NCBI GenBank assembly: GCA_035495615.1
Contig: DATJFP010000088.1
Span: forward strand, 41,763 to 105,762
Direction: 5' to 3'
From: Verrucomicrobiia bacterium
GTDB lineage: Bacteria; Omnitrophota; Omnitrophia; Omnitrophales; Aquincolibacteriaceae
DNA: 64,000 bases
A program made the translations under genes and the position numbers. This document shows, in pieces, positions 1 through 64,000 of this stretch; within the stretch, counting starts at the first letter, position 1, and each line of letters opens with the position of its first letter. The notes below the pieces were generated by a model that was not told where the DNA came from, did no database searches, and saw only the letters and a program-made list of their open reading frames with translations.

Positions 1-290
1 AGGCGCGCGCGGCCGCGGAGCGCGCGGTTGATGTCGGTCTGCAGCGCGATCTCCCCTTCCCCGAGGGCTCGCAGGAACTGATACGCGTAGGCCATGACGA
101 TGGGATTGTTCTCGTCGACGGCCGCGGGAATCACCAGCTGCCCGCTGCGCAGGAGCGTCGAGATGTGGCGGGCATAAGCGCGGTAGATCGGGCCCGAGTC
201 GAAAAACTGATAGCCGAATTCCCTGGCCAGAGCCCGGGCGGCTGTCGATTTACCGGCCTGCGCGGGACCCGCGATATTGATGCCTTCGGG
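1..290 (-). other. Cytidylate-kinase-like P-loop NTPase module, in frame within the giant ORF (Walker A GPAQAGKS at 246-269)
   Basis: Codon-by-codon minus translation: ...QILETPEGINIAGPAQAGKSTAARALAREFGYQFFDSGPIYRAYARHISTLL... This matches the Cmk N-terminal signature I(A/D)GPxxxGKST(V)A..LA...G....DxGxxYRA seen in bacterial Cmk proteins. No stop codon separates it from the 1,000 upstream codons I translated. Confidence 0.5.
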
Positions 291-3200
291 CGTTTCCAGA
301 ATCTGGACCCACTGGTCGAGCGCGGCGTCGCGCTTTTCCTTCGGCAGGAGCTGGAGGAACGCGTTCACTTCGGCGGGCAGGTTCTGCGGCTGGACGCGCA
401 TTTCGGCGCGGCCATAGCGTTCGGCCTTGCGGGAAAGGCGCCAGATCTCCGGCGTTACCGCGCCCGGAGCCAGGTCGCCGATCCGCACCTGGATCGCGCG
501 CGACAGGCGCTGAAGAACGCCGGAATCGGTGTGAAAAACGTATTCGGCGCGGGTGAGCAGCTGCCCGAGGCCTTCCAGCGTCACTTCGCGGAGGTTCAGG
601 GCCTCGGCCGGCATCACCGCGAAATCGCCCAGGCCGTTGTCCGCGGCCCAGCGCAGGTAATTCGCATAAACCGAGAGTTCTTCTTCGGAGGTCTTCGGCG
701 GATCGCGTTTGACGATCCTGGCCAGATCGGCGAGCAGTTCCTGGCGCCGGGCTTCGGCGCTTTGCGGGCCGTGCTGCAGGTTGCGCACCAGCGCGTCTTC
801 GCGGCGGAGCCCGAGGCCGGGCACCACGTCGCGGCGCGAACGTTCGTTCAAGCGTCTCATGCTGCGTTCGATCTCGGGATTGGCCGCGGCGCCTTCCAGG
901 ACTTCGGCGGCGGAAACGCGAGCGATCAAGTGGCCGTCGGCGGATTCCTTGGTGGACGGAAGTCCCGGCACGTTCAAAAGCCCATCGTGCAGGTCTTCGA
1001 TGGCGAACGCCGTGCGCGGCGACTGGACCACGAAAGCGCTGAAATTCACCGAAGCCATGCCCGCGGCCGCGATCGCCTCGACATGCGGCCGCAGTCCGGC
1101 GACATATTCAGGATCGCGGTATTCGATATCCCGAATCACGCCCGCGACCGAGGCGATGTTCTCCGCCAGCGGGCCGCGCGTCTTGTAAATCTCATAGATG
1201 TTGGTCAGGCTGGCCATCGAAGGAAGCGTGACCACCCTTGCGTAATCTTCCGGATTGATCTGCTCGATCAGGCGCCGCATCTGGCGGAGCAGAAGGCGCC
1301 GTTCGGTCGAGGCGCGGCGAAGGGCGATCGAGGCCGTGGACTGCGCGGCTTCGCCCTTGGCGCGTCCCTGCGCTTCCTGGGCGTCCCGGAAAGCTTCTCT
1401 CGCGCGTTCGAGGCGCGGCAGGAGCCCGCGGATCGCGATCTGCGTGGTCATCAGTTTGAGGTGCAGCGAAAGCCGGTCAAGATAGTAAGCCAGGTCGTCG
1501 TCGGAAACCGTATTCTCGAGAAGCGCCTCGGTAACGGAACCGCGCAGCCCGAGCGCGGGCCGGTTTTCCAGCTGAAGCACGAGGCCGGACTGCGTCAGCG
1601 CGTAAAGGATCGCGCGCTGGAACGGCAGGAACGCGGCTTCGGCCTGCTCCTGTCCGAGCTTGGTAGTTTTCATGGTCCATTCGCGTCCGCGCGCGTCCGT
1701 GAAATGCGGGAACAGCGCCAGCACGTCCGGCGTATCCGCGGGCGGGATGCGCGTGATGTTTTTCTGCCAGTACCGCACGAACGACGAGGCGTCGAGCATT
1801 TCCGGAACCTGGTTGCTCGAGGTGTAGCTCACCGCGGCCGCGCCCACCGCCTGCTCGAACAGCTTGACCGTGTCGCGGCCGTAAGCGGCCGAGCGCAGGA
1901 ACGCCATGCCGCGGCGCAGCTCGTCGCCGACCGCGCGCACGACGCGCTGGTAAAGTTCGGGGCCGCGGCGCACGGCGCGCATGAGCGCGATCACGTTTTC
2001 GATGTTGTAGTAGCGGCCGCCCGGCGCTTCCGCGTCTTCGGTCGTGCCCAAAAGCTCCGCGCCCGGCTTGCCGTTCAGCCAATCCGAGTACACGCGGCGG
2101 AAGTCGTCGAGATCGATCTGCTTGATTTCGTAGATGAAACGTTCGACCTGGAAGCGGTAGCGGTCGTCCGCAAGTTCGGCTTCCAGCACGCGGTCGATCG
2201 CGGCCTCGCCGGCATTGACGATGAATTCCGCGAGCGTGATCAGGGAACTCGCCAGGCGCACGTCCGAGCCCGTGATAATCACTTCGTTGTGGCGGAAGAG
2301 GAAGGTGTTGAATTGCTGGCGCTGCTTGGCGGTCATGCCTTGGTAAAGGCGGTCGAGGATCGCGGGGTCCGCCTGCGTGATCGTGATCGGCCCGGGCGCT
2401 TCCGCGGTGCGGGACAAGTCTTCCGCGCGGCGCGAGATGCTGTTGGCGATCAGAAGCTCGCGCAGGTAAGAGCCGAGAAGCTTGGGTTCGCTCGCGCGCC
2501 GGATCTGGTTGGTCCTGCCGTCATAGTCCGTCTTATGGCCCAGGTTGACTTCGCTGTACGGGAAGTGCAGGTGGTACACCATACCTTCGATCGCGGTGCG
2601 GAGAAGCGCGTTCGGATCGAACGTGGTTTGTTCGGGCTGCGCGGTTTCCGAGACTTCGTCGAACACGATCCGCTCAGGCGGCGTCAGGCCTTCCTCTTCG
2701 AACCAGCGCCTCACGTCGTCTTCGGTGAGCGGGCCGGCAACAGGAGCGGCCGGAGCGGGAGCGCCTTCGGCCGCCGGCGTCGCCGGAGCCGGAGCCGCGG
2801 GAACGGGCCCGCGCGTTTTCGACCACTGGAACTGGCTTTCGCCTTTGTACGGGGCGGTCTTGGACGCCACGAGAAATTCTTCGACTTTGGCCGCGCCGCG
2901 TGTCTTGCTGAGCATGAGGGCTTTCAGGAAGCCGGTGATGATACCGCCGGAAACGCTGTCCACGAAGCGGATGTCGGTCTTGGGATCGATGCCCGCGGCC
3001 AGGACTTCCGCATAAATGCCCTCGGCGATCCGGTTGAATTCCGGATCCGTGCGCATGCGTTCTTCGAAATACGGCAGCAGCGCGTCGTAGAAGCGGCGTT
3101 CGCGCACCGCGGCGTCCGCCGTGCCCGCCCGATTCTCGCGTTCCTCGTCCTCGCGGAAGAGGCCGCGCACTTCGCCCACCATGCGTTCCATGACCGGGTA

Positions 3201-6200
3201 CGCGTTGCCGAGCTTTTCACGCGACACCTGGATGAGGACGTTTTTCGACTCGTCGAATTCCGCGCCCTGCATCATCTGCTTCGTGATCCAATAGTTTGCG
3301 CCGTCGCGGGCGAGATAAACATTGACCTTCTTGTCGTCGATCTGATCCACGACGTAAGGCAGCAGGCGGTTGATCGCCACCAGGGCGTGGTAGAAGGTGT
3401 ACTTGCCCCTGTTCGCCGGGTCATAGGCCTCGCGGATCGCGTTCTTCAGGTAAGAGATCCTGGAATCCAGCAGGTAGCGGCGGACGTCTTCGGAAGCGCC
3501 GGTCCCCGCGATTTGAGCTTTGAGCTCCGCGGCTTTCTCATCGAGCTTTTTCAGGATTTCGTTTGCATCGTAGGCTTGAACTTCAGCGGTGGGCTTGTAA
3601 AAGGCATTGAGGCGCATTTCGGGACGCAGGACGGGGCCGGACAAATCGATCTCCTGCGCCGGAGGCCCGCGGCGCGTGAATCTCTTGGCCGCGGCCTGGT
3701 TCACGAACGCGGCATTGGCGCGGCGCAGCGTGCGGTAGTTGTCGAACTGTTCTTCCTGGCTGCTCGGCGCGTGCACGCCGTTGGCGGCCGCGAACGTGGC
3801 GCGGTCCGGCGACTGCCAGGAACGGCCGAGGTCGAGCGTCTTTCTCATACTGCCGGAAATCAGCGCGCGATAGATCAGGCTGCGGAGCGAACCGTACTGC
3901 GTGCCGTACGCCTTTTCGGTCGACGCGGGGCCGACGACGATGGTGCTCAGGAATTCCTGCATGCCCACGGCGTTGTAATCGCGGCCGCCGAGCAGCGCTC
4001 TCGCCTGCTCGTCGGACAGGCCGTAATCTCTCACGATCTGAGCGCGCGTGACGCCGGGTTTCAGCTGCAGCGCGACGGGCTGCAGGCCTTCGTTCAGGTA
4101 GTTCCACAGGAATGCGAGCGCGCGCAGGCGCGGGTCGTCGGGATATCTCGGGCCGGCTTCGCCTGCCGGGCGGTTCGTGGCATGGAGCGTTTCGGTCAGC
4201 CACTCGTAGAACGCGGGGCCGTTACGCTCGTCGATCGCTTCGATCGCGGGCTCGACCGGGATGCCGGTGCCGCGCAGCATTTCGGTGCGAAGGCGCAGTC
4301 CCGAATTGCCCCAGATCGCCATGACGTCGTTCTGGAATTCGGGGCTTGGATTTTCCCTGTCCGTGTGGCCGGTCACGCGTCCGGCAATGATGTCGAAATG
4401 CAGTTCCACCTGGTCGAGGACCTGTTTGCGCACGGGCCAGGGCAAATCGCCTTTCAGGACGAGAAGCAGCGGCAGCGTCGACGGGGCTTCGGTCTTGAGG
4501 GGCTTGGGAGCCGGAGCCGGCACGGTTCCCCGCGTCTTGTCGCCCTTGGTGCCATCGGCCCAGCGCACGCCGTTGCGGTTGTCCAGCGTCTTGACCTGTT
4601 TGAGCGAGGTGGACGCCAGGCCCCGCAGCGTCGGGAAATCCTGGTCCGTACGGAAAGCGGCGCCCACGGAAATCGTGAACTCCGGCATGTTCTGCAGCGG
4701 CTCGGCGCGCAGGTATCTTCCCTGCACCTTGAGTTCCCTGTTCCAGTCTTCCAGCTTGCGGGCGAGCGCGGCCGCGAGCGGCACGTTCTTGCCTTTGTCG
4801 AAAACGATGAGCGCGCGGCCGCGGTTGACCGCGATCGGATAACCCACGGTGGTCTTGATCAAGTCACGCGTCTTGTCGTCGAGCGAGCGGAAATCCTGCG
4901 CGCTCTCGGCAAGGCCGAAACGGCCGTGCGTGCCGAACGAAATTTCGGCGCGCAGCCTTTCGAGGAAACGGGCGGCAAGCGCCTTGTCGAGCGGCCGGTC
5001 ATTCGTGCCGGTGATCAGCAGCCAGGATTCGTCGGGGCCGCGGCGGATCTGGCGGGCCGCGAGCTTGGGACCGTCCGCGTCGCGGAAAACATCTTCTTTC
5101 AGGATGTCGTCGATCGCGCGGTTCATGACGATGCGCACCATGCCGGCGAACTTGTACGTGCGGCCTTCGAAGGCCGTGTGGTACTGCGTGAGGAAGTCGA
5201 TGTCGACGGTGGCCAGCGCGAACTGTGTGTTCTGCTCGATCAGCTGCCCGATGAGGCGTTCGCCGTCGCGCTGCCCCATGGCCGCTTCGGAAGTCGTCAT
5301 GATCGGCGTATCGTCGCTGATTTCGGTGGCGGTTCTCCAGGTCTCGCGCTGTTCCAGCTTCGTGGCATCCAGGAAATAAACCGGGGGCAATTCGGAATAA
5401 CGGCGGTTGCCGGCCGCGTCCCACAAGCCCAGCGTATCGTAGTTTTCCTGCCCGCGGACGAGAATCATTTCGGAGTTGAGGAAGGCATCGGCCACGTCGC
5501 CCGCGATACCGCGGTCCCCGTCGTGGCGCTCGGTGCCGGAAATGTTGCGGAGATCGAGGCCGTAAGTGGCCGGGCCGTGATCGGACAGCACGAAGCGGCC
5601 TTCCAGCTTGTGGCGGCGCAGGTGCGCGAGCGCCGGATGTTCGAGAGCGGTCTCGATGTCGCGGACCGTGAGGGCGCGGCCCACGGGCACGGCTTTGGCC
5701 ACGCCGAAAATCGTCAGGCCCTGGTTGTCGTCGAGCCATTTCTGCACCGCGAGGAGGTCCTGCACGCCTTTAGGATCGCGCGGGTTCACGTTTCCGAAAA
5801 CAAAAGTCGCCTTGGCGAAGCTTGAAAGCTGCGGAATCGCCGTGATCGCCGGAGCCGGCGCGTCCAGCACCGCGGTGATCGCCTGCGCCTGCGCGTTCGC
5901 GGCTTCGTCATGTCCGGCTTCTTTGAGCGCCATTTCCACGATGCGGTTGTGCAGCGTCACGTATTCCGGAGCGCTGAGCGTGGTGCGGAATTCACGGCCG
6001 CCCAGGAAAGGCGGCTTCCACTGGCGCACGCGGGCGGCAAAATCTTTCACGTAAGTGCGCGTCGCTTCGTTCTGGATGCCGCGCGCGTCCAGAGCCGCGT
6101 CGAGGAAATCGTCCATTCTCGCGTCGGCGGTGACAAAATCCGTGATCGGCGCGCCGGGACGATAGTCTCCGGGCACCTGCGTCAGAAGCATCTGGGTCCT

Positions 6201-9200
6201 GTTTCCGGGTTCGTAATGCGGGGCGTCCACGCTCTCGACTTTGTCCAGGTTGCCGAGGAAAAGATCCATCATGTCCAGCACGACTTCGGCCAGGGTGCGG
6301 TCGCGCGTGACCACTTGCTGCCCGCCGCCCGTCGCGGCCTGAGGAGCGCCGTAACCTCCGGCGGCCTGAACGCCGTATCCGCCCGCCGCAGCCGGGGCCC
6401 CGCCTTCCGCCTGGGGCGCGCCGTATCCGGGCGCGGCAGCCTGGCCGCCTGCCTGGGGCTGTGCCCCTGCGGCGGCATAACCGCCCACAGGCGCGCCTTC
6501 TATCGGCTCGGACGTGGCCGCTCCGTAACCGGGAGTGGCGGCCGCGGCTCTCGCGGCCCCCGCCCTGACTTCCCTCTCTATAATAGGAAGGAAGCCCAGC
6601 CTGGAAACTTCATCCGCCAGGTCCAGCGTCGCCTGGTAAGCGACCGCGTCGAGGGACCGGATCTCGCCCAAGTTGGCATTCGGTTCTTTTTCGCGCAGCA
6701 GCTGGATCGCGCGCACGCCGCGCTTGATCTGATCCAGGTTGATCTGGCTGTTGGCCAGGAAACGGCGCGCGCCGTACTTGTCCAAAAGCCGGTCCGCGGC
6801 TTCGAACGATTCGGCGTAAAGATAAAGGTCTTCCACCAGGTGCCGGAGGCCGGCCGCGGGCTTGGCGCCTTCGAAGAAGGTCTTGAGTTTGCGCCCGCCC
6901 CTGCCGAGGTCGCCTTCGATCTCGAAATCAAATTGCAGCATGAAGCGCAGGATTCTGAGCGCCAGGCGCGGGTTCAGGTCCGCATGGCCCGCATCCGGAT
7001 AATTGACCCGCAGGACGCCTTCGCGGAGATCTTCGCGGCCCGAGAAGCTGTCGTGGATAATGTAGTCGCTTCCTTCTTTCCACAGCGCAAGACGGTTGAT
7101 GGTCAGTTCCGGCACTTCGGTAAGGGCCCCGACGTTGGGCGGCGTTTCATGGACGCGGCCCGTCGTGGCGTCGATGACGCCCGTCACGTGGATGGGCAGC
7201 CGGCGCCCGTCCGTGTGGACCATGACCGCGCGGCCTTCGAGCACTTCCTGCGCGGTGAGGTCCTGCGAAATCGTGCCGTCGAGCGCGCGGCCCTTGAATT
7301 TCTGGGCCAGGACGCCTGCCGCGGGCATGGCCGCGTCAAACAGCAGCCGCTCGCGGAACTGGTTGATGAGGTAAGCGCGGAAGGCCAGCATCACGATCTT
7401 GTCCGCGTCTTCGCGCGTCAGCGGGCTCTTCGCCTGACGCTGGGATTCGTAGACGTCGCGGATCTGCCGGCGCAGCTTGAGATTGAAGGCCGGGTCCGAG
7501 GCCTTGGCCGCTTCATAGGCTTCTTTGTAACGCTTGTAGTCCGGATACTCTTCCAGGATTTTTTCGTACAGGCGCTGCTGGTCTTCCTTGATCTCGACGT
7601 GATTGGCGTGCTTGATCTCGCCGATGAGCTTGGCATCCTGCGGAAGTTCTTTCAGCCAGGCCAGCTCCGTCTCGCGGGCATTGAGCCGGGCGACGGCTGC
7701 GTCGTCGAGGCGGACCTGGAGCAGCACGTCGACTTCGTCGCTGCGCTTTTCCTGCCCTCCGAGCTCGTTACGCACGATGCCGCCGAACGCCACGACCGCG
7801 GGATTGTTGACCCCGTCGAGGAACGCGCGGAGCGCCCCGTTCTGCGTGAGCTGGTTCGGGGCCAGAGTCTCGCGAAGCTCCGCCCTTTGCTGCACGGCCG
7901 TCACGGCCGCGGCCAGCCGCGGGTTGTTCAATTCGGGCGCGTCACGGAGAAGCGGAACCACGTGATGGCGGACGAAAATGCCGAGTTCCCGGAGCGCGAC
8001 CGGCTTGAACCGGCGCGCGCCGCTGAGGGCATCTTCCACGACCGTAAGCGCCGCGTTTGCGAAATAAGCGTCGCCCACGGCGGCGCGGACGTCGTTGATG
8101 CTTTGCACCGGCGCGTCTGGAATAATTTCCGTGCTGAGGCTCGAGAAAGGCGTGAGGCCGCTTTCGATCCGCGACACCACATCGCGGAACGCTTCCCGAT
8201 CTTGGAGCGGCTTCAGCGCCCGCGTCAGCCTCTCGCTTCCGAGCTCCGGGCGGCTCTGGATCAGTTTTTTCAGATGTTTCACGATGAAGCTCAGCTTCGC
8301 GTCTGGAAGATTGTGGAGCCGCGGCTCTTCGAGCATGAGCTGCACCGTCTGCATAAAGGCCAGGTCGCCCATGTCCTTGCGGAAATCATCCACGAATTTC
8401 CAGGCCGCGTCATACTCAAAGTCAGGATAAAAGGAGCGGTCCCGGATGCCGTCCGCCAGCTTTTTCGCGGCCGCGGCAAGATGCGTGTCCGGCGTTTCGG
8501 CCGTGAGCTCGGCCGGCACGGGCTTGTCCGCGAGATCGGGACGCCGCGCAAGCAAGGGACGCAGGTGTTCTTCTTCGAGCCTCTGGTACAGCACGGGAGC
8601 AAAGCTCTTGACCCGGTCTTCGAGAATGGCGTCCAGCGCGCCGCGGAAATAAGCGTCGCCGGCAAGGATGGCGGCCAGCGCGGCGTGATAGGTTTCGTCG
8701 CCCAGGTCTTTTCCGACGGCCTCGATGCGTTCTCTGCGGACCTCCGGGCCCAAGTCCCCCGGCGCACCAAAGCCGGTGCCGGCCACCGCGTCGAAGATCC
8801 GCGTGATCGCGCGTTCGAGCGGCGTCTTGCCGTAGCGCGAGCCTTCTTCGTAGACGCGGCGGAAATTCGTGACGGCGTTGTCAAGCCTGTCGTTCAGCAG
8901 CATGGGCCGGCGGGTAAGCATGCGGCGAACATGGAGATTAAGCAATTCAGCCACGATGCGCGGCGGCAGATCGTAGTGGCCGGCTTCTTCCACGATCGCG
9001 ATTACGGCTTCGCGGAAGAGCACGTCTTTGGCCTCGCGGCGGACGCTCTCGATCATTTGTTCGCGCATCAAGTCACGGTCCTGGGCTGCCTGCACCGCGA
9101 TCAGGATTTTGCGCACCGTCGCATAAACCGGCGGCAGTTCGGGCGCCGCGGGCGCTTTTTCCGGAACCTTTTCGAGTTTCGACGCGGCCGGGACCTTCTT

Positions 9201-49228: not shown

Positions 49229-49239
49229 GATTCCTCCTG

Positions 49240-50802: not shown

Positions 50803-50877
50803 GACGACACACCGGTCTTCGGGAATAAACCAGATTCAGGAAGGAAATGTTGGGGCGCGGGACGTAGGAAGCGAGGA

Positions 50878-51243: not shown

Positions 51244-51326
51244 TCATCCTCAATGCCTTCGCCGGGAGAGGGCCCGATGTCGGCCCCTAAAATATCGGCC
51301 TCTCTCCAGGGAAAATTAAGCGAAGA

Positions 51327-51402: not shown

Positions 51403-51411
51403 ATTGAATTT

Positions 51412-52257: not shown

Positions 52258-52267
52258 GCCGCTGCTT

Positions 52268-54073: not shown

Positions 54074-54116
54074 CGGACCTCCGGAAGATACTGTTGCTGG
54101 CCGCGGACTGGCGGGG

Positions 54117-54818: not shown

Positions 54819-54980
54819 ATTTCCCCTTTCGAGCCTATTCCCCGCGTCATGAAACGGGGGCCGCAGATGTTGCTAAAAGTTATCGGCCTTTTATCTTAAG
54901 GATTAAGAGCTGTGCACTCAAATACTAGCATGGAAACTTAAATTTGTCATCCAACCATCAAAAAGGAGCCAAAACTATCA

Positions 54981-57014: not shown

Positions 57015-57134
57015 AGGCCTCTATTATCGGCTGTTAAGAGGATTGGATTGAACGCCAATGAGGAAGATAGCCGCGGGGAAGACGGGACCCAAGGATGAGT
57101 CCGGAATGGTACGGGATCTAAGGCAAGCGGAATC

Positions 57135-57566
57135 TTAGCTTATGCCGGGAACTTCCTCTGGATCATTGAAATCATTGACCTTGGTTTCAAGCCAGTGATT
57201 GTAAGCATAGTCCAGAACGCGGAACTTATCCACGGGATCCATCATCAGGAAGCGGACGCCCTGATCATAGCCCTGATTACGGCCTTCTGCCGGGCAGGAC
57301 CACATCACCGTTCCGGAGGTACGGACCGGCTTGGGATCATCCGGAATGTCGATTTCCAGGTCTACCAGAGTCCCCTGTTTGAGATGGACATTGGAATTCA
57401 TCTTGATTCCCTCGCGGGACAGGTCTTTGCTTAAGCTGATGCCCTGAACTTCTTCGCTGCCGGGAGTTTTGAATTTAACGCTCATGTAAGCATCGAATCT
57501 TTTAAATTTTCTCCGCTCTTTTTCCATGAGCTCCTCCTTGTTGTTTGTCATCCTGAGGTTCTCCAT
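57135..57566 (-). CDS. PilZ-domain protein (likely c-di-GMP receptor)
   Basis: 143-aa ORF with RxxxR (ERRKFKRF) and DxSxxG (DLSREGIKM) PilZ motifs. Confidence 0.7.
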   Translation of the reverse strand: MENLRMTNNKEELMEKERRKFKRFDAYMSVKFKTPGSEEVQGISLSKDLSREGIKMNSNVHLKQGTLVDLEIDIPDDPKPVRTSGTVMWSCPAEGRNQGYDQGVRFLMMDPVDKFRVLDYAYNHWLETKVNDFNDPEEVPGIS

Positions 57567-57744
57567 TTGATCGAGATAGACTTTTATAAGTCGTTAAAAA
57601 AACTGGGCTTACGAATAGCGTTTCCAAAATCAATCCAAATATAACACATGAATTTTTCGTTTACAAGAGCACCAAAAAAAAATCTTGGAGCTTTAACTCG
57701 AAGAATGGAAGGGACTTACAGAGCGGGGAAAGAGTTTCCAGAAA

Positions 57745-58242
57745 TCATCTAAAATTCGTAAATTGCAACGGAATGTCAGCGGTGTCCGTGGATAAGCTAT
57801 GAATAACAGCCTGTAATTCGTCTTTGCTTTTGGAGGTTACCCGGATTTCTTCTCCCTGGATGCTCGCCTGCACCTTGTAGTTGCCGTCTTTGATCTTCTT
57901 GATGATGATTTTTGCTTTGTCCTGCGGGATACCGTTTACGATAGTCGCTTCCTGCCTCAGGGTGCCCTCGAAAGCTTTTTCGGGTTCTTGGAATTGCAGG
58001 GCTTTCACAGAGATCCGGCGTGCCGCCATGCGGGTCTTCAAAATGTCCTGGAGGTTTTTTAATTTCAAATCGTCATCGGCGATCAGGCGGATTTTTTTTT
58101 CAACCTTCAAAAACTCAATGGTACTCTTGCTGCCCCGGAAATCGAACCGGTTACGGAGCTCTTTGACGGCCTGATTGACGGCATTGTCGACCTCTTGGAA
58201 GTCAACCGAGGAAACAATATCGAAGGAAAACTGCGAAGGCAT
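57745..58242 (-). CDS. yajQ: YajQ-family nucleotide-binding protein (UPF0234)
   Basis: 165-aa ORF starting MPSQFSFDIVSSVDFQEVDNAVNQAVKELRNRFDFRG and ending ...GEEIRVTSKSKDELQAVIHSL...PLQFTNFR. Matches the YajQ consensus along its whole length. Confidence 0.85.
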   Translation of the reverse strand: MPSQFSFDIVSSVDFQEVDNAVNQAVKELRNRFDFRGSKSTIEFLKVEKKIRLIADDDLKLKNLQDILKTRMAARRISVKALQFQEPEKAFEGTLRQEATIVNGIPQDKAKIIIKKIKDGNYKVQASIQGEEIRVTSKSKDELQAVIHSLSTDTADIPLQFTNFR

Positions 58243-58251
58243 AGCGGAGCT

Positions 58252-58617
58252 TTACGGAACGTTTTTCTTGGCGAAGGATTCGATCTGTTTTTTCAGGAGA
58301 TTCTGGTTGTCGGTGTCCATGTCTTCGAACTCAATGCCGACATCATAGCGAACCTTGCGGTTACGCGAGTTGCCTACCGGAACGATCCAGACAACCTTCC
58401 CCTTACACTCGATGACTTCTTTTTTGCTCCCGAGATCAAGGCGGACCATGCAGCGGCTGAAACGTTCCAGCGAACGGTTAAGGATCACCGCAACGCCGCC
58501 GACGCCCACGTTCTCCGTCATGGAGCTGAGAGGAACGCCCTCTTCGTCGGAACGAATTTGAATTTCGCAATGCAAATTCATCCGGGGAAATTTTCTTTGA
58601 TCAAAGCCGTCCCACAT
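58252..58617 (-). CDS. PilZ-domain protein
   Basis: 121-aa ORF with QRKFPR (RxxxR) and TENVGVGG (D/NxSxGG-like) motifs. Confidence 0.65.
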   Translation of the reverse strand: MWDGFDQRKFPRMNLHCEIQIRSDEEGVPLSSMTENVGVGGVAVILNRSLERFSRCMVRLDLGSKKEVIECKGKVVWIVPVGNSRNRKVRYDVGIEFEDMDTDNQNLLKKQIESFAKKNVP

Positions 58618-58643
58618 GAGCGCCGGGTCCTCTCAAAAGGCTT

Positions 58644-59663
58644 TTAATCCAGGGTCCTGACAAAAGCATCCTGGAATGATTTCGAGGCATTGCCTTTCCG
58701 GAATTTTTCCAAATAGGTCTGAGCCTCGTCCGCGTCGGAAAACCTTCCCAAAAAAACCGAATGATAGACGCGGCCGCTGCGGCTCGAAAGGGCTTTGACA
58801 AATGCCGGGGCGCCGCTGTCTTTAATATCCTGAACAACGCGTTCCGCATCTTGTGCCGTCGCATATGTGGCGACTTGCACGACGTAGCGCTTGCCTGTTT
58901 CAGCCTCGGCTTTCGGAGCATTCGGCTCAGCCTGCGCGGCATTTTCCACCGCAGGAGCTGCGGCGGGCGCGGGCGTTTCCTGTGCGGAAGAGCGTTCTTC
59001 TTCCCCGCGGGCGCGCTCTGCGCGGGAAGCCTTGGCGGGCTTTGCAGCCTGTTTCGTAACGGTCTTTCCCGGGTTTTTCATGGCTCTTTCACGATTCACA
59101 TTCAGCACATGAATTCCGGCGAAAACAGAAATCAGCAGGGCTGCGCCGACGACGCCAAAAAACGCACGCCGTATGGCGGGACGGCGAAAGTCGACGAGTT
59201 TGACCACCTTCCACAGCGACGTGAAAAGGACGATGGCCGCTTTCAAAAGAAATTTTCCGACGGATAGCGCGAACGCCGAGAGATTAGTCCAAAAGGATTG
59301 AGGGATCGAAGGCATTTTGAAAGGCGGCTTTGAGGACTGCGGCTTATTCGCCGCCTTTTGCTGCTTGGATTTTTCCGCTTCTGCGAGCTCTTCAAGGCGG
59401 GCCATGCGGTTGTGATCGCCCTTCGGCTCTTTATTTTCCGGCCTTTGAGTCTGCGGAGCCGGCCCTGAAAAAAGATCTTTGGAAGGCTGTTCTAACGTCG
59501 CGCTTTTCTGGGAAAACCCAAGCCGTTGCATGGGTTTGTTTTGAGGCGGTGTGGACGGCAGCATCGGCGGGCGAAGTTCCCCGTAGAGCTTTTTCTGAAT
59601 GTCGTTCTCGCTTAAAGTGCGTAAACTGCCGTTGCTTTTCTTGCCCTTATTGAACAACCCCAT
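58644..59663 (-). CDS. SPOR-domain membrane protein (septal peptidoglycan binding)
   Basis: 339-aa ORF with a TM segment (AALLISVFAGIHVL), a Pro/Ala/Glu-rich linker and a C-terminal SPOR fold (RYVVQVATYATAQDAERVVQDIKDSGAPAFV...VYHSVFLGRFSDADEAQ). Confidence 0.75.
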   Translation of the reverse strand: MGLFNKGKKSNGSLRTLSENDIQKKLYGELRPPMLPSTPPQNKPMQRLGFSQKSATLEQPSKDLFSGPAPQTQRPENKEPKGDHNRMARLEELAEAEKSKQQKAANKPQSSKPPFKMPSIPQSFWTNLSAFALSVGKFLLKAAIVLFTSLWKVVKLVDFRRPAIRRAFFGVVGAALLISVFAGIHVLNVNRERAMKNPGKTVTKQAAKPAKASRAERARGEEERSSAQETPAPAAAPAVENAAQAEPNAPKAEAETGKRYVVQVATYATAQDAERVVQDIKDSGAPAFVKALSSRSGRVYHSVFLGRFSDADEAQTYLEKFRKGNASKSFQDAFVRTLD

Positions 59664-59680
59664 AAAGAAAGACCGTCCTT

Positions 59681-60178
59681 TTAGAAAGATTCCCCTGATT
59701 TATGGCCGTCCCTCAAGGAAAGGGTAAACTTGAGAAGCTCGATGTCCCCCAGTTGAATCTTGGCGCGCTGCACGAAACCCTTCTTTTGGCAAAGGAGAAT
59801 AGCGCCCTGCATGCGCGACGTCGTCTTGAAGACGAGTTCCTGATAGCCCACTTCCTGGCAAAATTTCAAAGCGCGCTCGAGGAGCTTCTGCCCGATCTGC
59901 TTCTTGCGGTAATCCAACGAAACGAAAAGGCGCCGGAGAAGCGCGATGCGTTCGTCTTCTTTTTTGATGGCGACCGTGCCGATGACTTTGTTGCCGTCTT
60001 CGGCAATGAAAAAAATATCGCCGATATTGCCGTAGGCCTTTTCGATCTGCTCGATATCCGTGATCGGATACGCGCCCTGATCTTCCTTAAACTCGCGCGC
60101 CATGATGGCGGTGATCAGGCCTTTAATCGCTTCCTTGTCATCTTCGCGAAAACGCCGAATGCTGACCGGTTGGCTCAT
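59681..60178 (-). CDS. GNAT-family N-acetyltransferase. Probable start at the internal Met (MSQPVSIRRF...) rather than the ORF-track start at 60262.
   Basis: Acetyl-CoA binding region VIGTVAIKK...LRRLFVSLDYRKKQIGQKLLERA. Using ATG 60176-60178 removes an 83-nt overlap with the upstream ORF. Confidence 0.75.
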   Translation of the reverse strand: MSQPVSIRRFREDDKEAIKGLITAIMAREFKEDQGAYPITDIEQIEKAYGNIGDIFFIAEDGNKVIGTVAIKKEDERIALLRRLFVSLDYRKKQIGQKLLERALKFCQEVGYQELVFKTTSRMQGAILLCQKKGFVQRAKIQLGDIELLKFTLSLRDGHKSGESF

Positions 60179-60179
60179 A

Positions 60180-60461
60180 TTATTTCTTGGCTTTTTCGGC
60201 CGGCGCGGCGGCTTTGGCTTTTTCAGCAGGGGCTCCGGCAGCAGGCGCAGCACCCTTCTCACCCGCGGCAGCTTCTTTCGGACCGCCGGCAGATTTCTTC
60301 ACTTTAATCTTGATGGATTTGTACTTTGGCAGGCCGTAAACGGAAGCCTCTCCGCTCCATTTTCCGTCCGCTTCCATTTTTTTGATGCGCTCGTATTTCT
60401 TCAGCACGTTGCGGTGCTTGACGCCGACGCTGTCGACTTTAAGACTCGGATGCTGTGACAT
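60180..60461 (-). CDS. Small basic protein with a Lys/Ala-rich histone-H1-like C-terminal tail (hypothetical)
   Basis: 93-aa ORF ending ...KVKKSAGGPKEAAAGEKGAAPAAGAPAEKAKAAAPAEKAKK. Strong RBS (AAGGAGAG) 5 nt before the ATG. A sigma70-like promoter lies upstream. Confidence 0.55.
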   Translation of the reverse strand: MSQHPSLKVDSVGVKHRNVLKKYERIKKMEADGKWSGEASVYGLPKYKSIKIKVKKSAGGPKEAAAGEKGAAPAAGAPAEKAKAAAPAEKAKK

Positions 60462-60581
60462 GAACTCTCCTTAGACTAAAAAATTTGGCTAATAGCAGCC
60501 ATGAGTACGGGTTGGCATTTCCGCGGCTCGGCCGCAAATCGGGAACCGCCCGGGACTTCGCATCCCTCTGAAATATCGAGG

Positions 60582-60610
60582 ATTATACTCAATCCCTGCA
60601 CCTTTGGCTA
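60582..60610 (-). promoter_or_regulatory. Candidate sigma70-type promoter for the small basic protein gene
   Basis: On the minus strand: TAGCCA, then 17 nt, then TATAAT (plus-strand tggcta at 60605-60610 and attata at 60582-60587). About 115 nt upstream of ATG 60461. Confidence 0.4.
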
Positions 60611-60726
60611 GATGAAATTGATACTCCCAAACCGTCTTCCCGGCTCTCGAAAGTTACTCCGGATGGGGTCATTTGACGCTAAAGAGTGAAATTGCTAGTG
60701 ACGAACCGGCTAAGGACGGCCGGAGA

Positions 60727-61383
60727 TCAATGCGGCATGTTCCGGACGTACGCGTCCTGAGGGACCAGGTTTTGCACCTTTAAATTTTTGAGCAGAGAGG
60801 TTGCCGCGGACCGGCTCTCGAAAGCATTCACGCAGACTTGCAGGCTCTTGCCGCTGGGAATGACAAATCCCTGGTAGCCTTTGGTGGCCAGCTTTTCGAT
60901 ATGCTTTTGCGCCTGGGACTGGCTTTTATAGGTGACGACCTGAATCGTGTATTTGCCATCGGGCTTTGCGGCCGGCGCGGAAGCGGCTGCCGCAGGCGCA
61001 GCTTCGGCAACGGCGGCCGTCGGAGCTTCGGGTTCGGCTTTGGCAGTGGGAGCAGACGCTTCGATGGCCGGCGCAGCCGTCACGACGGCGGCCGGAGGAT
61101 TCGGAATTTGCGTGGCGTCGATAATAACGGTCTGCTGCCCTTCCGGAAGCACCGTCTTGGCGGGCTCAGCATACCGAGGGTGGATCTCACGCCCCGCGAA
61201 CTGCTTCCCTTTTTCCACGCCCATGCAGAAAACGACCGAGCTGAACACCAGCATGGCGATCATGACGATGAGTGCCTGGTCCAGGCGGATGGTGAACCGG
61301 TATTTTTCGAGGAATGCCGGACGTGTAACAGGGGTTATCGTGGATACCGATGCCGGAATTTTAAATAAGTCTGCTTGAAACAT
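60727..61383 (-). CDS. SPOR-domain membrane protein (second copy)
   Basis: 218-aa ORF with a TM segment (LIVMIAMLVFSSVVF), an Ala/Pro-rich linker and a C-terminal SPOR (KYTIQVVTYKSQSQAQKHIEKLATKGYQGFV...). Confidence 0.75.
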   Translation of the reverse strand: MFQADLFKIPASVSTITPVTRPAFLEKYRFTIRLDQALIVMIAMLVFSSVVFCMGVEKGKQFAGREIHPRYAEPAKTVLPEGQQTVIIDATQIPNPPAAVVTAAPAIEASAPTAKAEPEAPTAAVAEAAPAAAASAPAAKPDGKYTIQVVTYKSQSQAQKHIEKLATKGYQGFVIPSGKSLQVCVNAFESRSAATSLLKNLKVQNLVPQDAYVRNMPH

Positions 61384-61404
61384 AAGGCCTCCCAGTAGGA
61401 ATGA

Positions 61405-62676
61405 TTAGAACGCCTTTATGTTACGGCACAATTCCGCCAGGACATGAGCGCTTTGCCGCACTTTTCTTGCCTGGGTAGCGTAATCGACTTCGACGAGGCC
61501 AAAACGGGGCTTGAATCCGTCTGCCCATTCGAAATTATCCAGAAGCGACCAGTAGAAAAAGCCCATGACGTCCAATCCGTCCTTGCCCGCCCGTTCCAGC
61601 GCGCCCAAATGGGATTTGATGAACGCCTGGCGCTGTTCGTCCTCGTGCGCGCAGATGCCGTTTTCGCAAACCAGAACCGGAAGCCCGTACTGCTTCAGGC
61701 TCATGAGAATGCGGTAAAATCCCTCGGGATAGACTTCCCAGCCCATGGCATTGATTTCCTTGGATTCGCCCGGATGATGCTTTTCATTGCAATCTGAACC
61801 CAGCGGCGTGGGTGCGTCCCCGCCCGCCCTGACGAAATGGCGCGTGTAATAATTCACGCCGATGTAGTCCAACGTGCTCCGTGACGAAATGAATTCGCAG
61901 AAAAGCCCGGGGAAAAACAGGAAGCCATTTGTCAGCGCCTGCAAAAAAAGATGGTTGAAAAACCAGTCGCGCAAAAACGTAAACCACCGGTCTTTCACGC
62001 TCAAAGGATTGCAGGGAGTGAAATCAGACAAATGCTTGGCGATGGAAATCATGGCCCGGGTCCCCAGCGCTTCTTCGTAGTGCTGCTGCATGGCCTCGTA
62101 AGCGCCGACGTGCCCCTGGAGCAAATGGCGGAAAACTTTGACCGCGTCCGGAAAAGTTTTTTTTCCCGGGGGCCACAGTCCCGTGCAATACCCATGAAAA
62201 AGGTAAACCACCGGCTCGTTGATGGTGTTCCAGTAAGTCACGTGGCGGCCCAGGACTTCGGCCACTTTGCGGGCGTATCTTTTGAAATAACGGGGACTTT
62301 CCGGAGAAAGCCAGCCGCCCTTCTCCGCGAGCCATATCGGGTTGGTGAAGTGGTGGAGCGTCACGACCGGTTCGATCCCGAAACGACGCATCTCGAGGAT
62401 CATGTCTTCATAGTGGTGGAAGGCGCTTTCATCCCAGCGGCCTTCTTCCGGTTCGATGCGGCTCCATTCGATGGAAAAGCGGTGAGCATTATGCCCGAGC
62501 TTGGCGATCATCTCGATGTCTTTGCGGTACAGCTCGTATTGGTTGCACGCGAGTTCCGAGCAGGTCCGCACGCGGCCCGCTTTTTCAAAGGCCCACCAGT
62601 CGTTGTTCCGGTTGTTGCCTTCCACCTGGTGGGAGGAAGTCGCGGCGCCCCAGAGAAATAATTTCGATTCGGTCAT
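61405..62676 (-). CDS. Glycoside hydrolase family 1 beta-glucosidase
   Basis: 423-aa ORF starting LFLWGAATSSHQVEGN. Acid/base motif TINEP. Nucleophile motif VLVCENG. C-terminus ends with a FEW motif. Confidence 0.85.
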   Translation of the reverse strand: MTESKLFLWGAATSSHQVEGNNRNNDWWAFEKAGRVRTCSELACNQYELYRKDIEMIAKLGHNAHRFSIEWSRIEPEEGRWDESAFHHYEDMILEMRRFGIEPVVTLHHFTNPIWLAEKGGWLSPESPRYFKRYARKVAEVLGRHVTYWNTINEPVVYLFHGYCTGLWPPGKKTFPDAVKVFRHLLQGHVGAYEAMQQHYEEALGTRAMISIAKHLSDFTPCNPLSVKDRWFTFLRDWFFNHLFLQALTNGFLFFPGLFCEFISSRSTLDYIGVNYYTRHFVRAGGDAPTPLGSDCNEKHHPGESKEINAMGWEVYPEGFYRILMSLKQYGLPVLVCENGICAHEDEQRQAFIKSHLGALERAGKDGLDVMGFFYWSLLDNFEWADGFKPRFGLVEVDYATQARKVRQSAHVLAELCRNIKAF

Positions 62677-62776
62677 GGATCGTTTTCTTTTTGGAGGATT
62701 CAGGAAAGACGTTTCGTACCGATTTCTTCCAGTAAAGATTCGGCCGGTCGCCTTAAAAAATGAAGGATCGAGAAGG

Positions 62777-63412
62777 CTATTCCGCTTTTTTGATCCGCTG
62801 GGGGGGCCACCAGATCAGAAAAGCTTTTCCGACGAGATTGTTGCGGGGGACAAATCCCCAGCTCCGGCTGTCCGCGGAATGCGCGGAGTTGTCGCCCAGG
62901 ACGAAATAACTGTCTTCGGGAACGCGGATGACTTCGTTTTCGAGCCCGAGCCGGCCTTCCTTGACATTGTAATAATAATTCTTGGTGAAGACCTTGTCGT
63001 CGAGGACCTTGCCGTTGATGACGATCTTGCCGTCCTTGATCTCCACCGCTTCGCCAGGCAGTCCGACGAGCCGTTTGACAAAGTCTTTCTTTTTGTCGAG
63101 CGGGTACTTGAAGACAATGATGTCGCCGCGTTCCGGAGGACGGAACCGGTAGCTGATCTTGTCGACGAAAATGCGGTCACCCACAAGGAATGTGGGAATC
63201 ATGGATCCCGTGGGGATCTTGTAGGGACCGAGCAGGAACGTGCGGATCAGGACGGCGAGCACCGCGGCAACCAGGAACGGCTCGCCCCAATTCTTCCATT
63301 TGTCGAAAAGCCATTCTCGCCGGCGCGTCTGGAAACCGCGCCATTCTTCGGCGAGTTTGTGGCGGTAAAGGATGAGAAGACCCAGGGCCGCCAGAGCAAT
63401 CCAAATGATCAT
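62777..63412 (-). CDS. lepB: Signal peptidase I
   Basis: 211-aa ORF with an N-terminal TM, catalytic Ser motif IPTGSMIPT, Lys motif VKRLVGLPGE, and VLGDNSAHSADSRSWGFV. Confidence 0.9.
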   Translation of the reverse strand: MIIWIALAALGLLILYRHKLAEEWRGFQTRRREWLFDKWKNWGEPFLVAAVLAVLIRTFLLGPYKIPTGSMIPTFLVGDRIFVDKISYRFRPPERGDIIVFKYPLDKKKDFVKRLVGLPGEAVEIKDGKIVINGKVLDDKVFTKNYYYNVKEGRLGLENEVIRVPEDSYFVLGDNSAHSADSRSWGFVPRNNLVGKAFLIWWPPQRIKKAE

Positions 63413-64000
63413 GTGTCCACCTTGAGGACGGTGATAAAGGCTTCCTGAGGCAGATCAATCCGCCCCACCTTCTTCATCCGCTTCTTGCCTTCCTTTTGTT
63501 TTTCCCAGAGCTTGCGCTTGCGTGTGATGTCGCCGCCATAGCACTTGCTGGTCACATTCTTTTTCAGCGGCCCAATCGATTCGCGCGCGATGATCTTGCT
63601 GCCGACTGCGGCCTGGATCACGACCTCGAAGAGCTGCCTTGGGATCACTTCCTTCAATTTCTCGGCCAGTATCTTCCCGCGCTGGTAGGCCCTTTCCCGG
63701 ACCACGATGCTCGAAAGCGCGTCCACGGGCTCGTCATTGATCAAGATGTCGAGCTTCACCAGCTTGGATTCCTGCGGCTTGATGAAATCATAATTCAGCG
63801 AGCCGTAGCCCGACGTCGCAGATTTGATTTTATCATAAAAATCCATGACGACTTCGGCAAAAGGAATTTCGTAGATGAGCATGACACGCGTCTGGTCCAG
63901 ATATTCCGTGCTCTTATAAATTCCGCGCCGGTCCTGGCATAATTGCATGATGATGCCGATGTTGGCAACAGGAATAATAATGTTGGCGCGGATGAAGGGC
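63409..64000 (-). CDS. lepA: Elongation factor 4 (LepA), C-terminal part. N-terminus beyond the window end.
   Basis: C-terminal LepA region ...LVKLDILINDEPVDALSSIVVRERAYQRGKILAEKLKEVIPRQLFEVVIQAAVGSKIIARESI...KKVGRIDLPQEAFITVLKV. Overlaps lepB by 4 nt (classic lepA-lepB arrangement). Confidence 0.85.
   Translation of the reverse strand, partial: PFIRANIIIPVANIGIIMQLCQDRRGIYKSTEYLDQTRVMLIYEIPFAEVVMDFYDKIKSATSGYGSLNYDFIKPQESKLVKLDILINDEPVDALSSIVVRERAYQRGKILAEKLKEVIPRQLFEVVIQAAVGSKIIARESIGPLKKNVTSKCYGGDITRKRKLWEKQKEGKKRMKKVGRIDLPQEAFITVLKVDT

Follow-up and report, generated by a model that had tools for sequence, protein, structure and literature searches.

Omnitrophota genomes have been described as encoding giant or 'very long' proteins (West-Roberts et al. 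2023; Nielsen & Lui 2026; bioRxiv 10.1101/2023.11.21.568195 and bioRxiv 10.64898/2026.06.07.730766). The window analysed here, a stretch of 64,000 nucleotides, carries a gene of this kind. It is an uninterrupted ORF of at least 10,000 aa in an Omnitrophota genome, a single frame that also runs to more than 16,000 aa. Its product shares with the described proteins an N-terminal anchor, many transmembrane segments and almost no Pfam coverage. The replichore genes are likewise co-oriented, and assemblies likewise fragment at the gene. A term search of the two studies returned nothing on codon usage, giant-gene GC, mosaicism or recombination, and a search of Nielsen & Lui 2026 returned no discussion of cysteine. 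New here are the compositional offset of the gene, a gradient in its third-position GC (GC3), a conserved N-terminal module with a syntenic tRNA-Ala locus, and the decoupling of this module from the body of the protein.

We read the GC-rich 47 kb as the body of a native gene, with no island joined to a native stub. The explanation that we tentatively prefer, at a little short of an even chance, is a native, vertically inherited Omnitrophota giant membrane-protein gene whose composition differs through its protein make-up and a positional codon gradient.

A giant gene behind a syntenic locus

The minus strand holds a single stop-free frame from 48,545 to 1 (16,181 codons). The first ATG lies at 48,530 and the gene exits the window at the low-coordinate end with no stop reached. 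The annotated feature (1..48530, minus strand) is therefore the 5' part only, 16,176 codons of an ORF that is open past window position 1. The 16,176 aa include no cysteine. The gene has a GC of 0.633 (GC1 0.677, GC2 0.429, GC3 0.793).

The N-terminal module (aa 1-570; 46821..48530, minus strand; GC 0.545, GC2 0.304, GC3 0.721) is the sole part of the gene conserved in all ~160 related loci. It carries a hydrophobic anchor at aa 12-30 (48,441-48,497), and the residues DAH94, E122 and GGFH496 are invariant or almost so. Its AF2 model has a pLDDT of 86. A Foldseek search of the module against the PDB returned nothing with E < 0.07; EreC, ChaN, HopBA1 and BcR135 recur among the weak matches. Pfam matches are sub-threshold (Cofac_haem_bdg in 4 of 38 members, TraB_PrgY_gumN in 2 of 38), and the likeness to ChaN/Ere/TIKI is weak only.

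The module is followed by a lineage-specific proximal body (aa ~571-6,590; 28761..46820, minus strand) that is rich in Ala, Arg, Glu and Leu, with a GC of ~0.63 and a GC3 of ~0.74 that climbs to 0.80. No homologue of it (residues 700-6,500) was found in the sampled relatives. Part of it (aa ~1,700-4,800; 34131..43433, minus strand) consists of internal protein repeats with a period of ~167/334 aa. The copies are 50-60% identical to each other and contain 17-22% alanine, and no DNA-level tandem repeat occurs in this region.

Further downstream are body modules shared with the family (aa ~6,597-11,364; 14439..28742, minus strand), where GC3 is highest (0.80-0.86). These modules are collinear with ones in the first 1,000-5,500 aa of the relatives, with 26-39% identity, and 59% to one fragment (L082). 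Identities over aa 6,600-11,400 broadly track the N-terminal phylogeny. A second conserved module lies within this region (aa 8,680-9,420; 20271..22493, minus strand; GC3 0.81), and its identity matrix correlates with that of the N-terminal module (r = 0.57). A polytopic membrane region follows (aa ~11,354-12,750; 10281..14471, minus strand). A hydropathy scan, used here in place of a dedicated topology predictor, places the anchor and 28 more segments in the protein, ~20 of them in this region. The distal body within the window (aa ~12,751-16,176; 3..10280, minus strand) has a GC3 of 0.78-0.83 and a P-loop (cytidylate-kinase-like) match at ~170-280 that is cut off by the window edge.

The housekeeping genes that the earlier note had placed downstream (49240..63948, minus strand) share the giant gene's strand and are in fact upstream of it. 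They encode a histidine kinase, an alpha/beta hydrolase, a FadD-like ligase, a hypothetical protein, a cNMP-patatin protein, YajQ, a SPOR protein, a GNAT protein, a second SPOR protein, GH1, LepB and the LepA C-terminus. Their coding GC is 0.541 and their GC3 0.658 (0.60-0.74 per gene). A tRNA-Ala(CGC) gene (51327..51402, minus strand), the one tRNA gene in the window, lies shortly ahead of the giant gene and keeps this place in more than 20 relatives, where the N-terminal module likewise sits behind a Hyd-FadD-patatin-YajQ-SPOR block. Pfam and NCBIfam scans found no integrase or transposase in the flank or the giant ORF. All 43 named N-terminal homologues and the named loci (most of 80 GTDB records) belong to Omnitrophota; the remainder of the 80 are titled 'uncultured bacterium'. 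From sequence and gene order, a native 5' region is well supported, because the module is syntenic in these more than 20 relatives and the syntenic relative L081 is the best match in each sub-block of residues 1-700.

Protein make-up and synonymous codon choice

GC is 0.636 over positions 1-46,800 and 0.529 over 48,600-64,000, and 1-kb windows do not overlap between the two (0.604-0.678 vs 0.464-0.572; Mann-Whitney p = 8e-9). The discontinuity described in the earlier note is thus real, at ~10 points between the gene and its neighbours, but its magnitude was overstated. The stretch near 0-3 kb, put at 75-80% GC, has 0.654, and just 8% of its 60-nt lines reach 0.75. The values given for 47.3-48.5 kb (43-50%) and 44-46.5 kb (53-60%) are in fact 0.543 and 0.611. 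Other estimates hold: the 5' end of the gene is flank-like (0.532 over 47,000-48,530), and the measured minus-strand GC3 matches the 'about 80%' that had been given. The proposed drift along the ORF is borne out at third codon positions, with a GC3 of 0.72-0.74 over codons 0-5,000, 0.82-0.87 over 7,500-12,500 and 0.78-0.83 beyond.

Recoding the giant protein with the codon usage of the flank gives a GC of 0.588, compared with 0.541 in the flank and 0.633 observed. Here the background is the 15 kb of flank in the window, not the genome. The +9.2-point excess is the sum of +4.7 points that are compositional and 4.5 that are synonymous. Amino-acid bias, one of the two readings offered earlier, therefore accounts for half of the excess and leaves the synonymous half. 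The test that had been proposed for refuting the discontinuity goes the other way, as amino-acid correction leaves GC3 above the flank (0.793 observed vs 0.674 expected from flank usage). Amino-acid composition as the whole explanation is refuted because GC3 stays off flank values after this correction. Its share varies along the gene, and in codons 570-5,125 it makes up most of the excess (+6.5 points vs +2.7 synonymous).

From flank to giant protein, Gly+Ala+Arg+Pro rises from 26% to 32% and Phe+Tyr+Met+Ile+Asn+Lys falls from 27% to 20%. Lys, Ile, Phe, Asp and Glu are abundant in the N-terminal module (GC2 0.30). In the body, Ala and Arg are abundant, Lys and Phe are scarce and Cys is absent. 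The low GC at 47-48.5 kb is an effect of GC2 (0.22-0.32). The module is low in GC at codon position 2 alone, its GC3 of 0.72 already matches that of the next 4,500 codons, and in the window GC3 takes no step where the module ends. The visible jump at ~46.8-47 kb arises because a switch in protein composition lifts GC1 and GC2, a rise that starts inside the conserved module. This switch is the first step of the preferred explanation and supplies the compositional +4.7 points.

The synonymous share has a consistent character. The giant gene prefers NNC over NNT and favours GGC, CGC and NCG, keeps GAA over GAG, and has reduced GGG, CGG, CCC and TCC. This dialect is common to the gene and its flank, is more extreme in the gene, and is already there in the N-terminal module. 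Wright's Nc falls from 49 in the flank to 38 in the gene, with an equal offset from the GC3-expected value in both (hand calculation). The codon shift of the gene correlates with that of the relatives' N-terminal modules (r = 0.62), a weak proxy for favoured codons in a window that contains no ribosomal-protein genes. A synonymous shuffle of the gene contains 69 G/C runs of at least 5 and the gene itself 13, a ratio of 0.19 (0.48 in the flank). A/T runs of at least 6 occur at 0.33 per kb in the gene vs 2.64 per kb in the flank. Homopolymer depletion has the same direction in 44 relatives, and relatives of 5,000-7,000 aa contain 0-2 Cys.

GC3 rises along the gene by +0.0128 per 1,000 codons up to ~codon 11,000, and the positions determined by amino acids do not rise with it (GC1 -0.0065 per 1,000 codons, GC2 ~0). 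A linear fit describes GC3 better than the best single step (dLL 64.6 vs 56.3), the position of which is unstable. The slope is positive in 43 of 51 non-redundant related giant genes (mean +0.0124 per 1,000 codons, p = 1e-7), in which GC1 is flat and GC2 declines. Two complete genes, L083 and L085, have slopes of +0.012 and +0.010. The gradient consists mainly of a loss of A-ending codons, its strand asymmetry is at odds with the classical non-template-strand C-to-T bias, and in the window the rise ends after ~codon 12,500.

As a second step, a synonymous bias that exaggerates the host dialect adds ~+1.3 GC3 points per 1,000 codons to ~codon 11,000. GC3 reaches 0.82-0.87 because the ORF is exceptionally long and because the modules shared with the family occur 6,000-8,000 codons later in it than in relatives. 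The third step may be selection against processivity errors (ribosome drop-off, frameshift), the cost of which would grow with the residues already made. Homopolymer depletion and the missing TGY (Cys) codons fit this reading. Position-dependent selection against nonsense errors has been described, as has, in yeast, a high rate of drop-off at TGY and CGA codons (PMC13271495). We speculate, as a possibility that we consider rather doubtful, that Omnitrophota giant genes share an 'error-proofing' signature that grows with distance: a GC3 gradient, fewer slippery homopolymers and near-total avoidance of Cys (TGY). Its GC3 part would amount to ~+1.2 points per 1,000 codons, and the longest genes may come to resemble a foreign GC island. 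If this is true, giant genes would offer natural tests, of very high leverage, of selection against frameshifting and ribosome drop-off.

The same gene could be native with a neutral synonymous enrichment and gradient, which we consider somewhat unlikely. It could come from GC-biased gene conversion, in a gene that is hypervariable and prone to recombination, or from a gradient of mutation across the very long transcription unit, for example if polymerases thin out along it and transcription-associated GC-to-AT damage declines with them. Such GC-directional pressure would also enrich a weakly constrained protein in Ala and Arg and deplete it of Lys and Phe, and synonymous and non-synonymous positions have indeed both moved GC-ward. 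The bodies of the family recombine or turn over fast, the GC3 shift wholly explains the extra codon bias (equal offset from Wright's curve), the gradient is mostly the loss of A-ending codons, and the relatives' likely highly expressed genes lack high GC3. However, the shift is uneven, with the GC-ending GGG, CGG, CCC and TCC down and the AT-ending GAA up, and G/C homopolymers fall far below the synonymous shuffle. The strand asymmetry also mismatches the classical bias. Lassalle et al. in 2015 reportedly found GC3 effects of bacterial biased gene conversion of a few points, not 13-20.

Some observations sit against the preferred explanation. The window is an outlier within its family in GC, synonymous offset and dinucleotides, its GC3 reaches a plateau, and the loss of A-ending codons could equally come from a neutral process. 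The bodies of relatives have a codon bias no stronger than that of their flanks (Nc 52.3 vs 52.1), and their likely highly expressed genes tig, clpP and efp show no GC3 enrichment.

The gene family and the origin of the body

Body minus upstream GC is +0.104 in the window, compared with 0.007 +/- 0.021 in 28 relatives (maximum 0.048), and the synonymous offset at the body start is +0.076 vs -0.024 +/- 0.049. The body-flank dinucleotide distance of 92.8 is above that of every relative (median 48). The module at aa 8,680-9,420 has a GC3 of 0.81 in the window and 0.37-0.59 in relatives, where it approximates the upstream GC3 in the four loci in which both were measured (L018, L030, L027, L064). 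The closest homologue of aa 10,845-11,294 (54% and 59% identity in two comparisons) has a GC3 of 0.65.

Sequence comparison demonstrates that the gene family is mosaic. The N-terminal identity of L006 and L012 is 94%, with a body coverage of just 6%. For L011 and L029 it is 69%, and 53% of the body length aligns at 69% identity as well. One locus (L052/L098, JAKLIQ010000002.1) resembles the window in its N-terminal module (61% identity), synteny and open ORF of at least 3,900 codons. Its GC3 drops sharply right where the module ends, from 0.65 to 0.45, unlike in the window, which has no such drop. This is the look of a true mosaic junction, of the kind envisaged in the earlier note.

All or part of the window's body could likewise have been recombined from a higher-GC Omnitrophota lineage onto the native N-terminal module, which we consider unlikely. 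Besides these mosaic relatives, the body-flank contrast of the window, the largest in the family for GC and dinucleotide signature, speaks for such an origin, as do the orphan residues 700-6,500 and the upstream tRNA gene. That tRNA, however, is equally conserved beside giant genes of compositionally native relatives, and mobility genes are absent from the scanned flank and ORF. The GC rise begins within the vertically inherited module, its boundary lacks a GC3 step and GC3 changes gradually thereafter. Within the body, GC3 is lowest in the orphan proximal stretch and highest in the family-shared, apparently co-inherited modules. The gene keeps the host-specific GAA preference and flank dialect, of 30 dinucleotide signatures that of its own flank comes closest to it, and none of ~100 related bodies exceeds a GC of 0.60, with no high-GC donor among them. 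Of the earlier proposal of a mosaic or horizontal distal part on a native 5' region, the native 5' region stands. The mosaic distal part is not supported, given the missing step, the better linear fit, the high GC3 of the shared modules and the lack of a comparably GC-rich body among the sampled relatives, although the mosaic nature of the family leaves it some probability.

A very improbable alternative is an assembly chimera that joins a contig of ~52% GC, inside the N-terminal module, to the giant gene of an organism of ~64% GC. An independent JGI contig whose protein start is identical (P0001) breaks off 480 residues in, near the rise in total GC, and metagenome assemblies often break in such genes, with most matches annotated as 'partial'. 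Yet the frame stays open for 16,181 codons through the supposed join, where GC3 has no step. L081 is the best match on both sides of residue 480 (65-73%, then 69% and 43%), and module identity between species is just 60-80% at the protein level, too low for an assembler crossover.

The family picture is of a conserved, syntenic N-terminal module and a hypervariable, reshuffled body, with at least one relative whose body is clearly foreign. It may aid the annotation and assembly of Omnitrophota giant genes.

Comparison with genomic islands and processivity-selected genes

Like a horizontal genomic island, the giant gene is a long stretch that departs from its neighbours in GC, GC3, codons and dinucleotides, with a tRNA nearby, and the deviation persists after amino-acid correction. 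Unlike such islands, it is GC-richer than its host, not AT-richer, and consists of a single ORF. Its 5' end is syntenic and vertically inherited, no sharp GC3 boundary or mobility genes mark it, and the host codon dialect is kept. Compositional scans would call the 47-kb stretch a horizontal island. We conclude that this call is probably wrong, which advises caution for other very long genes.

Length- and position-dependent codon bias is said to have been ascribed to selection against nonsense and processivity errors by Eyre-Walker in 1996 and Qin et al. in 2004. The window resembles such systems in that a very long gene has the stronger bias, which grows in the 5'-to-3' direction at synonymous positions and not at those determined by amino acids, and in the depletion of slippery runs and of TGY and CGA codons. 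It differs in scale, since here the GC3 gradient extends over more than 10,000 codons and is big enough to mimic a GC island, and in that the rise flattens after ~codon 12,500. If the gradient holds up, these genes would offer a large-effect natural system for position-dependent codon selection, something that genes of ordinary length can hardly resolve.

Excess GC in the giant gene

A stop-free minus-strand frame runs from position 48,545 to 1 (16,181 codons). From its first ATG at 48,530 it encodes the 5' part of a giant gene (3-48,530, minus strand; 16,176 residues) that runs past the window edge. GC is 0.636 over positions 1-46,800 and 0.529 over 48,600-64,000, and the 1-kb windows of the two regions do not overlap (0.604-0.678 vs 0.464-0.572, p = 8e-9). 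The discontinuity described in the earlier note is thus real, but its hand counts exaggerated both extremes, as measured GC is 0.654 rather than 0.75-0.80 at 0-3 kb and 0.543 rather than 0.43-0.50 at 47.3-48.5 kb. Its giant-gene GC3 of about 80% agrees with the measured 0.793. The same note saw a 5' end with the composition of the flank; GC is indeed low at 47.0-48.5 kb, but because GC2 there is 0.22-0.32. GC3 in this stretch averages 0.72, the same as in the following 4,500 codons (0.74), and there is no GC3 step where the N-terminal module (aa 1-570) ends.

The giant gene exceeds the flank genes (49.2-64 kb, minus strand) in GC (0.633 vs 0.541), GC1 (0.677 vs 0.588), GC2 (0.429 vs 0.376) and GC3 (0.793 vs 0.658). 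Re-encoded with flank codon frequencies, the giant protein yields a GC of 0.588 and a GC3 of 0.674, so that 4.7 points of the excess stem from amino-acid composition and 4.5 points from synonymous sites, about half each. The protein is richer than the flank proteins in Ala (12.8 vs 8.8%) and Arg (8.8 vs 6.3%) and poorer in Lys (3.7 vs 7.7%) and Phe (3.5 vs 5.3%). Amino-acid bias, which the earlier note had offered as one cause, therefore accounts for only half of the discontinuity. As a sole explanation it is ruled out, since GC3 does not return to the flank value once amino acids are corrected for, and the anomaly is partly genuine at synonymous sites. The two shares vary along the gene. The GC difference from the flank is +0.4 points over codons 0-570 (amino-acid -2.6, synonymous +3.1), +9.1 over codons 570-5,125 (+6.5, +2.7), +9.4 over codons 5,125-12,500 (+3.9, +5.5) and +10.3 over codons 12,500-16,176 (+5.3, +5.0).

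Low complexity or tandem repetition is likewise ruled out as the source. Ala-rich internal protein repeats occur only at aa ~1,700-4,800 (34,131-43,433, minus strand; period ~167/334 residues, 50-60% identical), and TRF detects no DNA-level tandem repeats over the giant gene, this stretch included. On the plus strand, positions 3-47,225 carry antisense ORFs of 760-1,940 codons (e.g., 3-5,822, 21,123-25,694 and 29,790-34,337). Each of their stops falls exactly on one of the only 21 TTA/CTA/TCA codons in the giant gene; these ORFs are thus by-products of its codon usage rather than genes.

The encoded protein and its locus

The N-terminal module (46,821-48,530, minus strand) has a confident AlphaFold model (pLDDT 86), which predicts an alpha/beta core interrupted by a helical insertion of ~300 residues. 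Residues DAH94, E122 and GGFH496 vary little or not at all. The module shows recurring, weak similarity to ChaN, erythromycin esterase, HopBA1 and TraB (TIKI superfamily), and a name for it is absent from all databases searched. The first 700 residues of the giant protein have 43 homologues, and all named ones are Omnitrophota.

The 16,176 residues have next to no Pfam matches. A P-loop match to the start of a cytidylate-kinase model (~170-280, minus strand; 35.9 bits) is above the Pfam cut-off and clipped at the window edge, and a sub-threshold match resembles an ARMT1-like phosphatase (~5,430-5,760, minus strand; aa ~14,257-14,367). Together, these sequence matches hint at enzymatic domains in the distal part. 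The giant protein contains no Cys, compared with 0.6% in flank proteins. Relatives of 5,000-7,200 aa (L083, L085 and L086 among the loci examined) have zero or one, and sampled bodies, the portions beyond the N-terminal module, have at most 0.2%. Cys may be missing because the protein is extracytoplasmic, or because TGY codons, neighbours of TGA, are avoided.

The flank genes lie on the same strand and are therefore upstream of the giant gene, not downstream as first described. They are ordinary genes, in the order histidine kinase, alpha/beta hydrolase, FadD-like ligase, hypothetical protein, cNMP-patatin, YajQ and SPOR, followed by a GNAT acetyltransferase, a second SPOR, GH1 glucosidase, LepB and the LepA C-terminus. 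In gene calls from near-identical public contigs, YajQ is flanked by two small PilZ-domain genes (121 and 143 aa; 57,000-57,745 and 58,243-58,644, minus strand). Together with the genes for cNMP-patatin and the histidine kinase, these may constitute a c-di-GMP/cNMP signalling cluster directly upstream of the giant gene.

The histidine-kinase gene (49,240-50,802, minus strand) lies between the giant gene and a tRNA-Ala(CGC) (51,327-51,402, minus strand). Both the window and more than 20 relatives (loci L001, L002, L005, L010-L012, L015, L016, L022-L024, L027, L028, L035, L038, L043, L052, L055, L062, L070 and L072) carry this tRNA 0.4-3 kb upstream of the giant-gene start. The commonest Ala codon in the Ala-rich giant gene is GCG (47% of 2,064).

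GTDB and metagenome scans identified 160 loci with the N-terminal module. The ORF stays open to the locus end (at least 3,900 codons) in nearly all that reach far enough, and the hydrolase-FadD-patatin-YajQ-SPOR block and tRNA-Ala(CGC) are kept upstream in more than 20. The 5' module thus sits at its ancestral locus, and the giant-gene locus is native. An exact 46-mer search of metagenome contigs for an extension of the window gave no match. Exact-sequence queries had no entry for LepB or for P0001, a homologue with the identical protein start, and led to contigs for YajQ.

One syntenic relative, L081, comes from a 37% GC genome (JGI 3300056623, Ga0558116_01763). Across all sub-blocks of residues 1-570 (65-73%), and again over residues 571-700 (43%), it is the top match, so the rise in total GC falls within vertically inherited sequence; there is no sign of a chimera at residue 480. 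In L081 the N-terminal module gene is 691 aa long, with separate ORFs of 1,160, 571, 235, 99 and 124 aa behind it. All are Cys-free save for one Cys in the N-terminal module gene, and their GC is 4-5 points above the flank. L081 may be a fragmented or non-giant form of the locus.

A gradual rise in GC3 and the question of import

The synonymous rise is gradual and common to the family. Over codons 570-12,500 of the window, a line fits GC3 better than the best single step (dLL 64.6 vs 56.3), and the position of that step shifts with the range analysed. A junction at codon 5,125, the single change point, is thereby ruled out. GC3 rises by +0.0128 per 1,000 codons. The mean body slope is +0.0124 in a non-redundant set of 51 relatives (3,000 codons or more each), 43 of them positive (p = 1e-7), with GC1 flat and GC2 slightly negative along the body. 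The GC3 trend is still present from codon 1,400 on, and full-length slopes in the two complete genes tested are +0.012 and +0.010. Modules shared with the family lie 6,000-8,000 codons further from the start in the window than in relatives. The family slope alone predicts ~+0.09 of their +0.15 GC3 excess. The rest is a higher starting level (+0.076, vs a family range of -0.19 to +0.068) that lies within the flank genes' own GC3 spread (0.60-0.74).

The earlier note also raised a mosaic or horizontal origin of the distal part, and the family does swap bodies. N-terminal module and body are decoupled and evolve independently. Pairs that are 89-94% identical over the N-terminal module have 0-6% of the following 3,250 residues in common, including L006/L016 and L006/L012 (94%, body coverage only 6%). 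In pairs with 69% N-terminal identity the bodies are 66-69% identical, e.g., L011/L029 (69% over 53% of length). Locus L052 (JAKLIQ010000002.1, 10,001-21,718; identical to L097/L098) shares the synteny and has an N-terminal identity of 61%. GC3 at this locus is 0.64 upstream and drops abruptly from ~0.65 to ~0.45 exactly past the N-terminal module. L052 makes a convincing example of a native 5' module joined to a foreign body of lower GC and serves as a positive control for this idea.

An imported body in the window itself is nevertheless improbable, given the gradual rise without a GC3 step. It retains some weight because the family demonstrably swaps bodies and the giant gene is its compositional extreme: body minus upstream GC is +0.104, compared with 0.007 +/- 0.021 in 28 relatives, and the body-flank dinucleotide distance is the largest seen (92.8 vs a median of 48). 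Despite that distance, the gene's own flank is the nearest of 30 dinucleotide signatures, and none of ~100 family bodies has a GC above 0.60. The distribution of GC3 also argues against import, as orphan residues 700-6,500 carry the lowest GC3 of the body, whereas residues 6,600-11,400, collinear with family modules at 26-39% identity, carry the highest (0.80-0.86). The identity matrix of the module at aa 8,680-9,420 tracks the N-terminal matrix (r = 0.57). Its GC3 is 0.81 in the window and 0.37-0.59 in relatives, where it is near upstream GC3 in the loci with both measured (L018, L030, L027 and L064). A word-indexed homologue search with aa 8,651-10,750 gave no matches, while exhaustive phmmer with aa 9,901-11,100 gave 20. 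In three complete relatives sharing aa 10,000-11,000 (5,233, 7,079 and 7,212 aa), gene GC3 equals flank GC3.

Codon preferences and possible causes

The synonymous shift is non-uniform. C-ending two-fold codons, GGC, CGC, CCG, ACG, TCG, CTG and CAG are increased in the giant gene, whereas GC-ending GGG, CGG, CCC and TCC are reduced, and AT-ending GAA remains preferred (0.70 flank, 0.73 giant gene). These are the flank's own preferences pushed further. Nc is 49.4 for the flank and drops to 38.1 for the body, and the offset below Wright's GC3 curve, calculated by hand from Nc, is about -7 in both. In a C/(C+G) ranking of codon dialect against 46 relatives, the gene's own flank ranks 1, 5, 7, 4 and 11 of 47, a suggestive result but not a decisive one. 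Robustness to nonsense mutation through synonymous choice was rejected as an explanation, being inseparable from the GC shift; TCG is increased, and Glu, Gln and Tyr are not reduced.

From flank to body, rho CC/GG falls from 1.03 to 0.79 and rho CG rises from 1.19 to 1.35. Homopolymers are depleted. G/C runs of at least 5 number 13 in the giant gene vs 69 expected from synonymous shuffling (ratio 0.19; flank 0.48), and A/T runs of at least 6 occur at 0.33 per kb vs 2.64 in the flank. The depletion is family-wide to a modest degree. In 44 relatives, A/T runs of at least 6 occur at 1.53 per kb in bodies vs 2.39 upstream (p = 2e-6; rarer in 35 of the 44 loci), and homopolymer observed/expected ratios against synonymous shuffling are 1.11 in bodies and 1.30 in upstream genes.

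In the reading favoured here, the discontinuity is intrinsic to a native gene of exceptional length and does not mark a graft of foreign DNA. We propose that selection against processivity errors, which would become costlier with codon position, underlies the gradient. The expectation of such position-dependent selection is set out in PMC13271495; in yeast, according to the same paper, drop-off is high at TGY, TGG and CGA codons. Optimality of GC-ending codons in the window's organism is only putative, genes that are probably highly expressed in relatives lack a high GC3, and the GC3 rise flattens past codon 12,500. There is therefore room for neutral alternatives: the trend may instead stem from biased gene conversion, the gene being prone to recombination, or from a gradient of mutation along the transcript.

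Giant Omnitrophota genes were already known (West-Roberts 2023; Nielsen & Lui 2026), although term searches of the two papers turned up nothing on their codon usage or base composition. The giant gene is one more of this known group, and the GC3 gradient that it shares with its family is the single lead worth pursuing.
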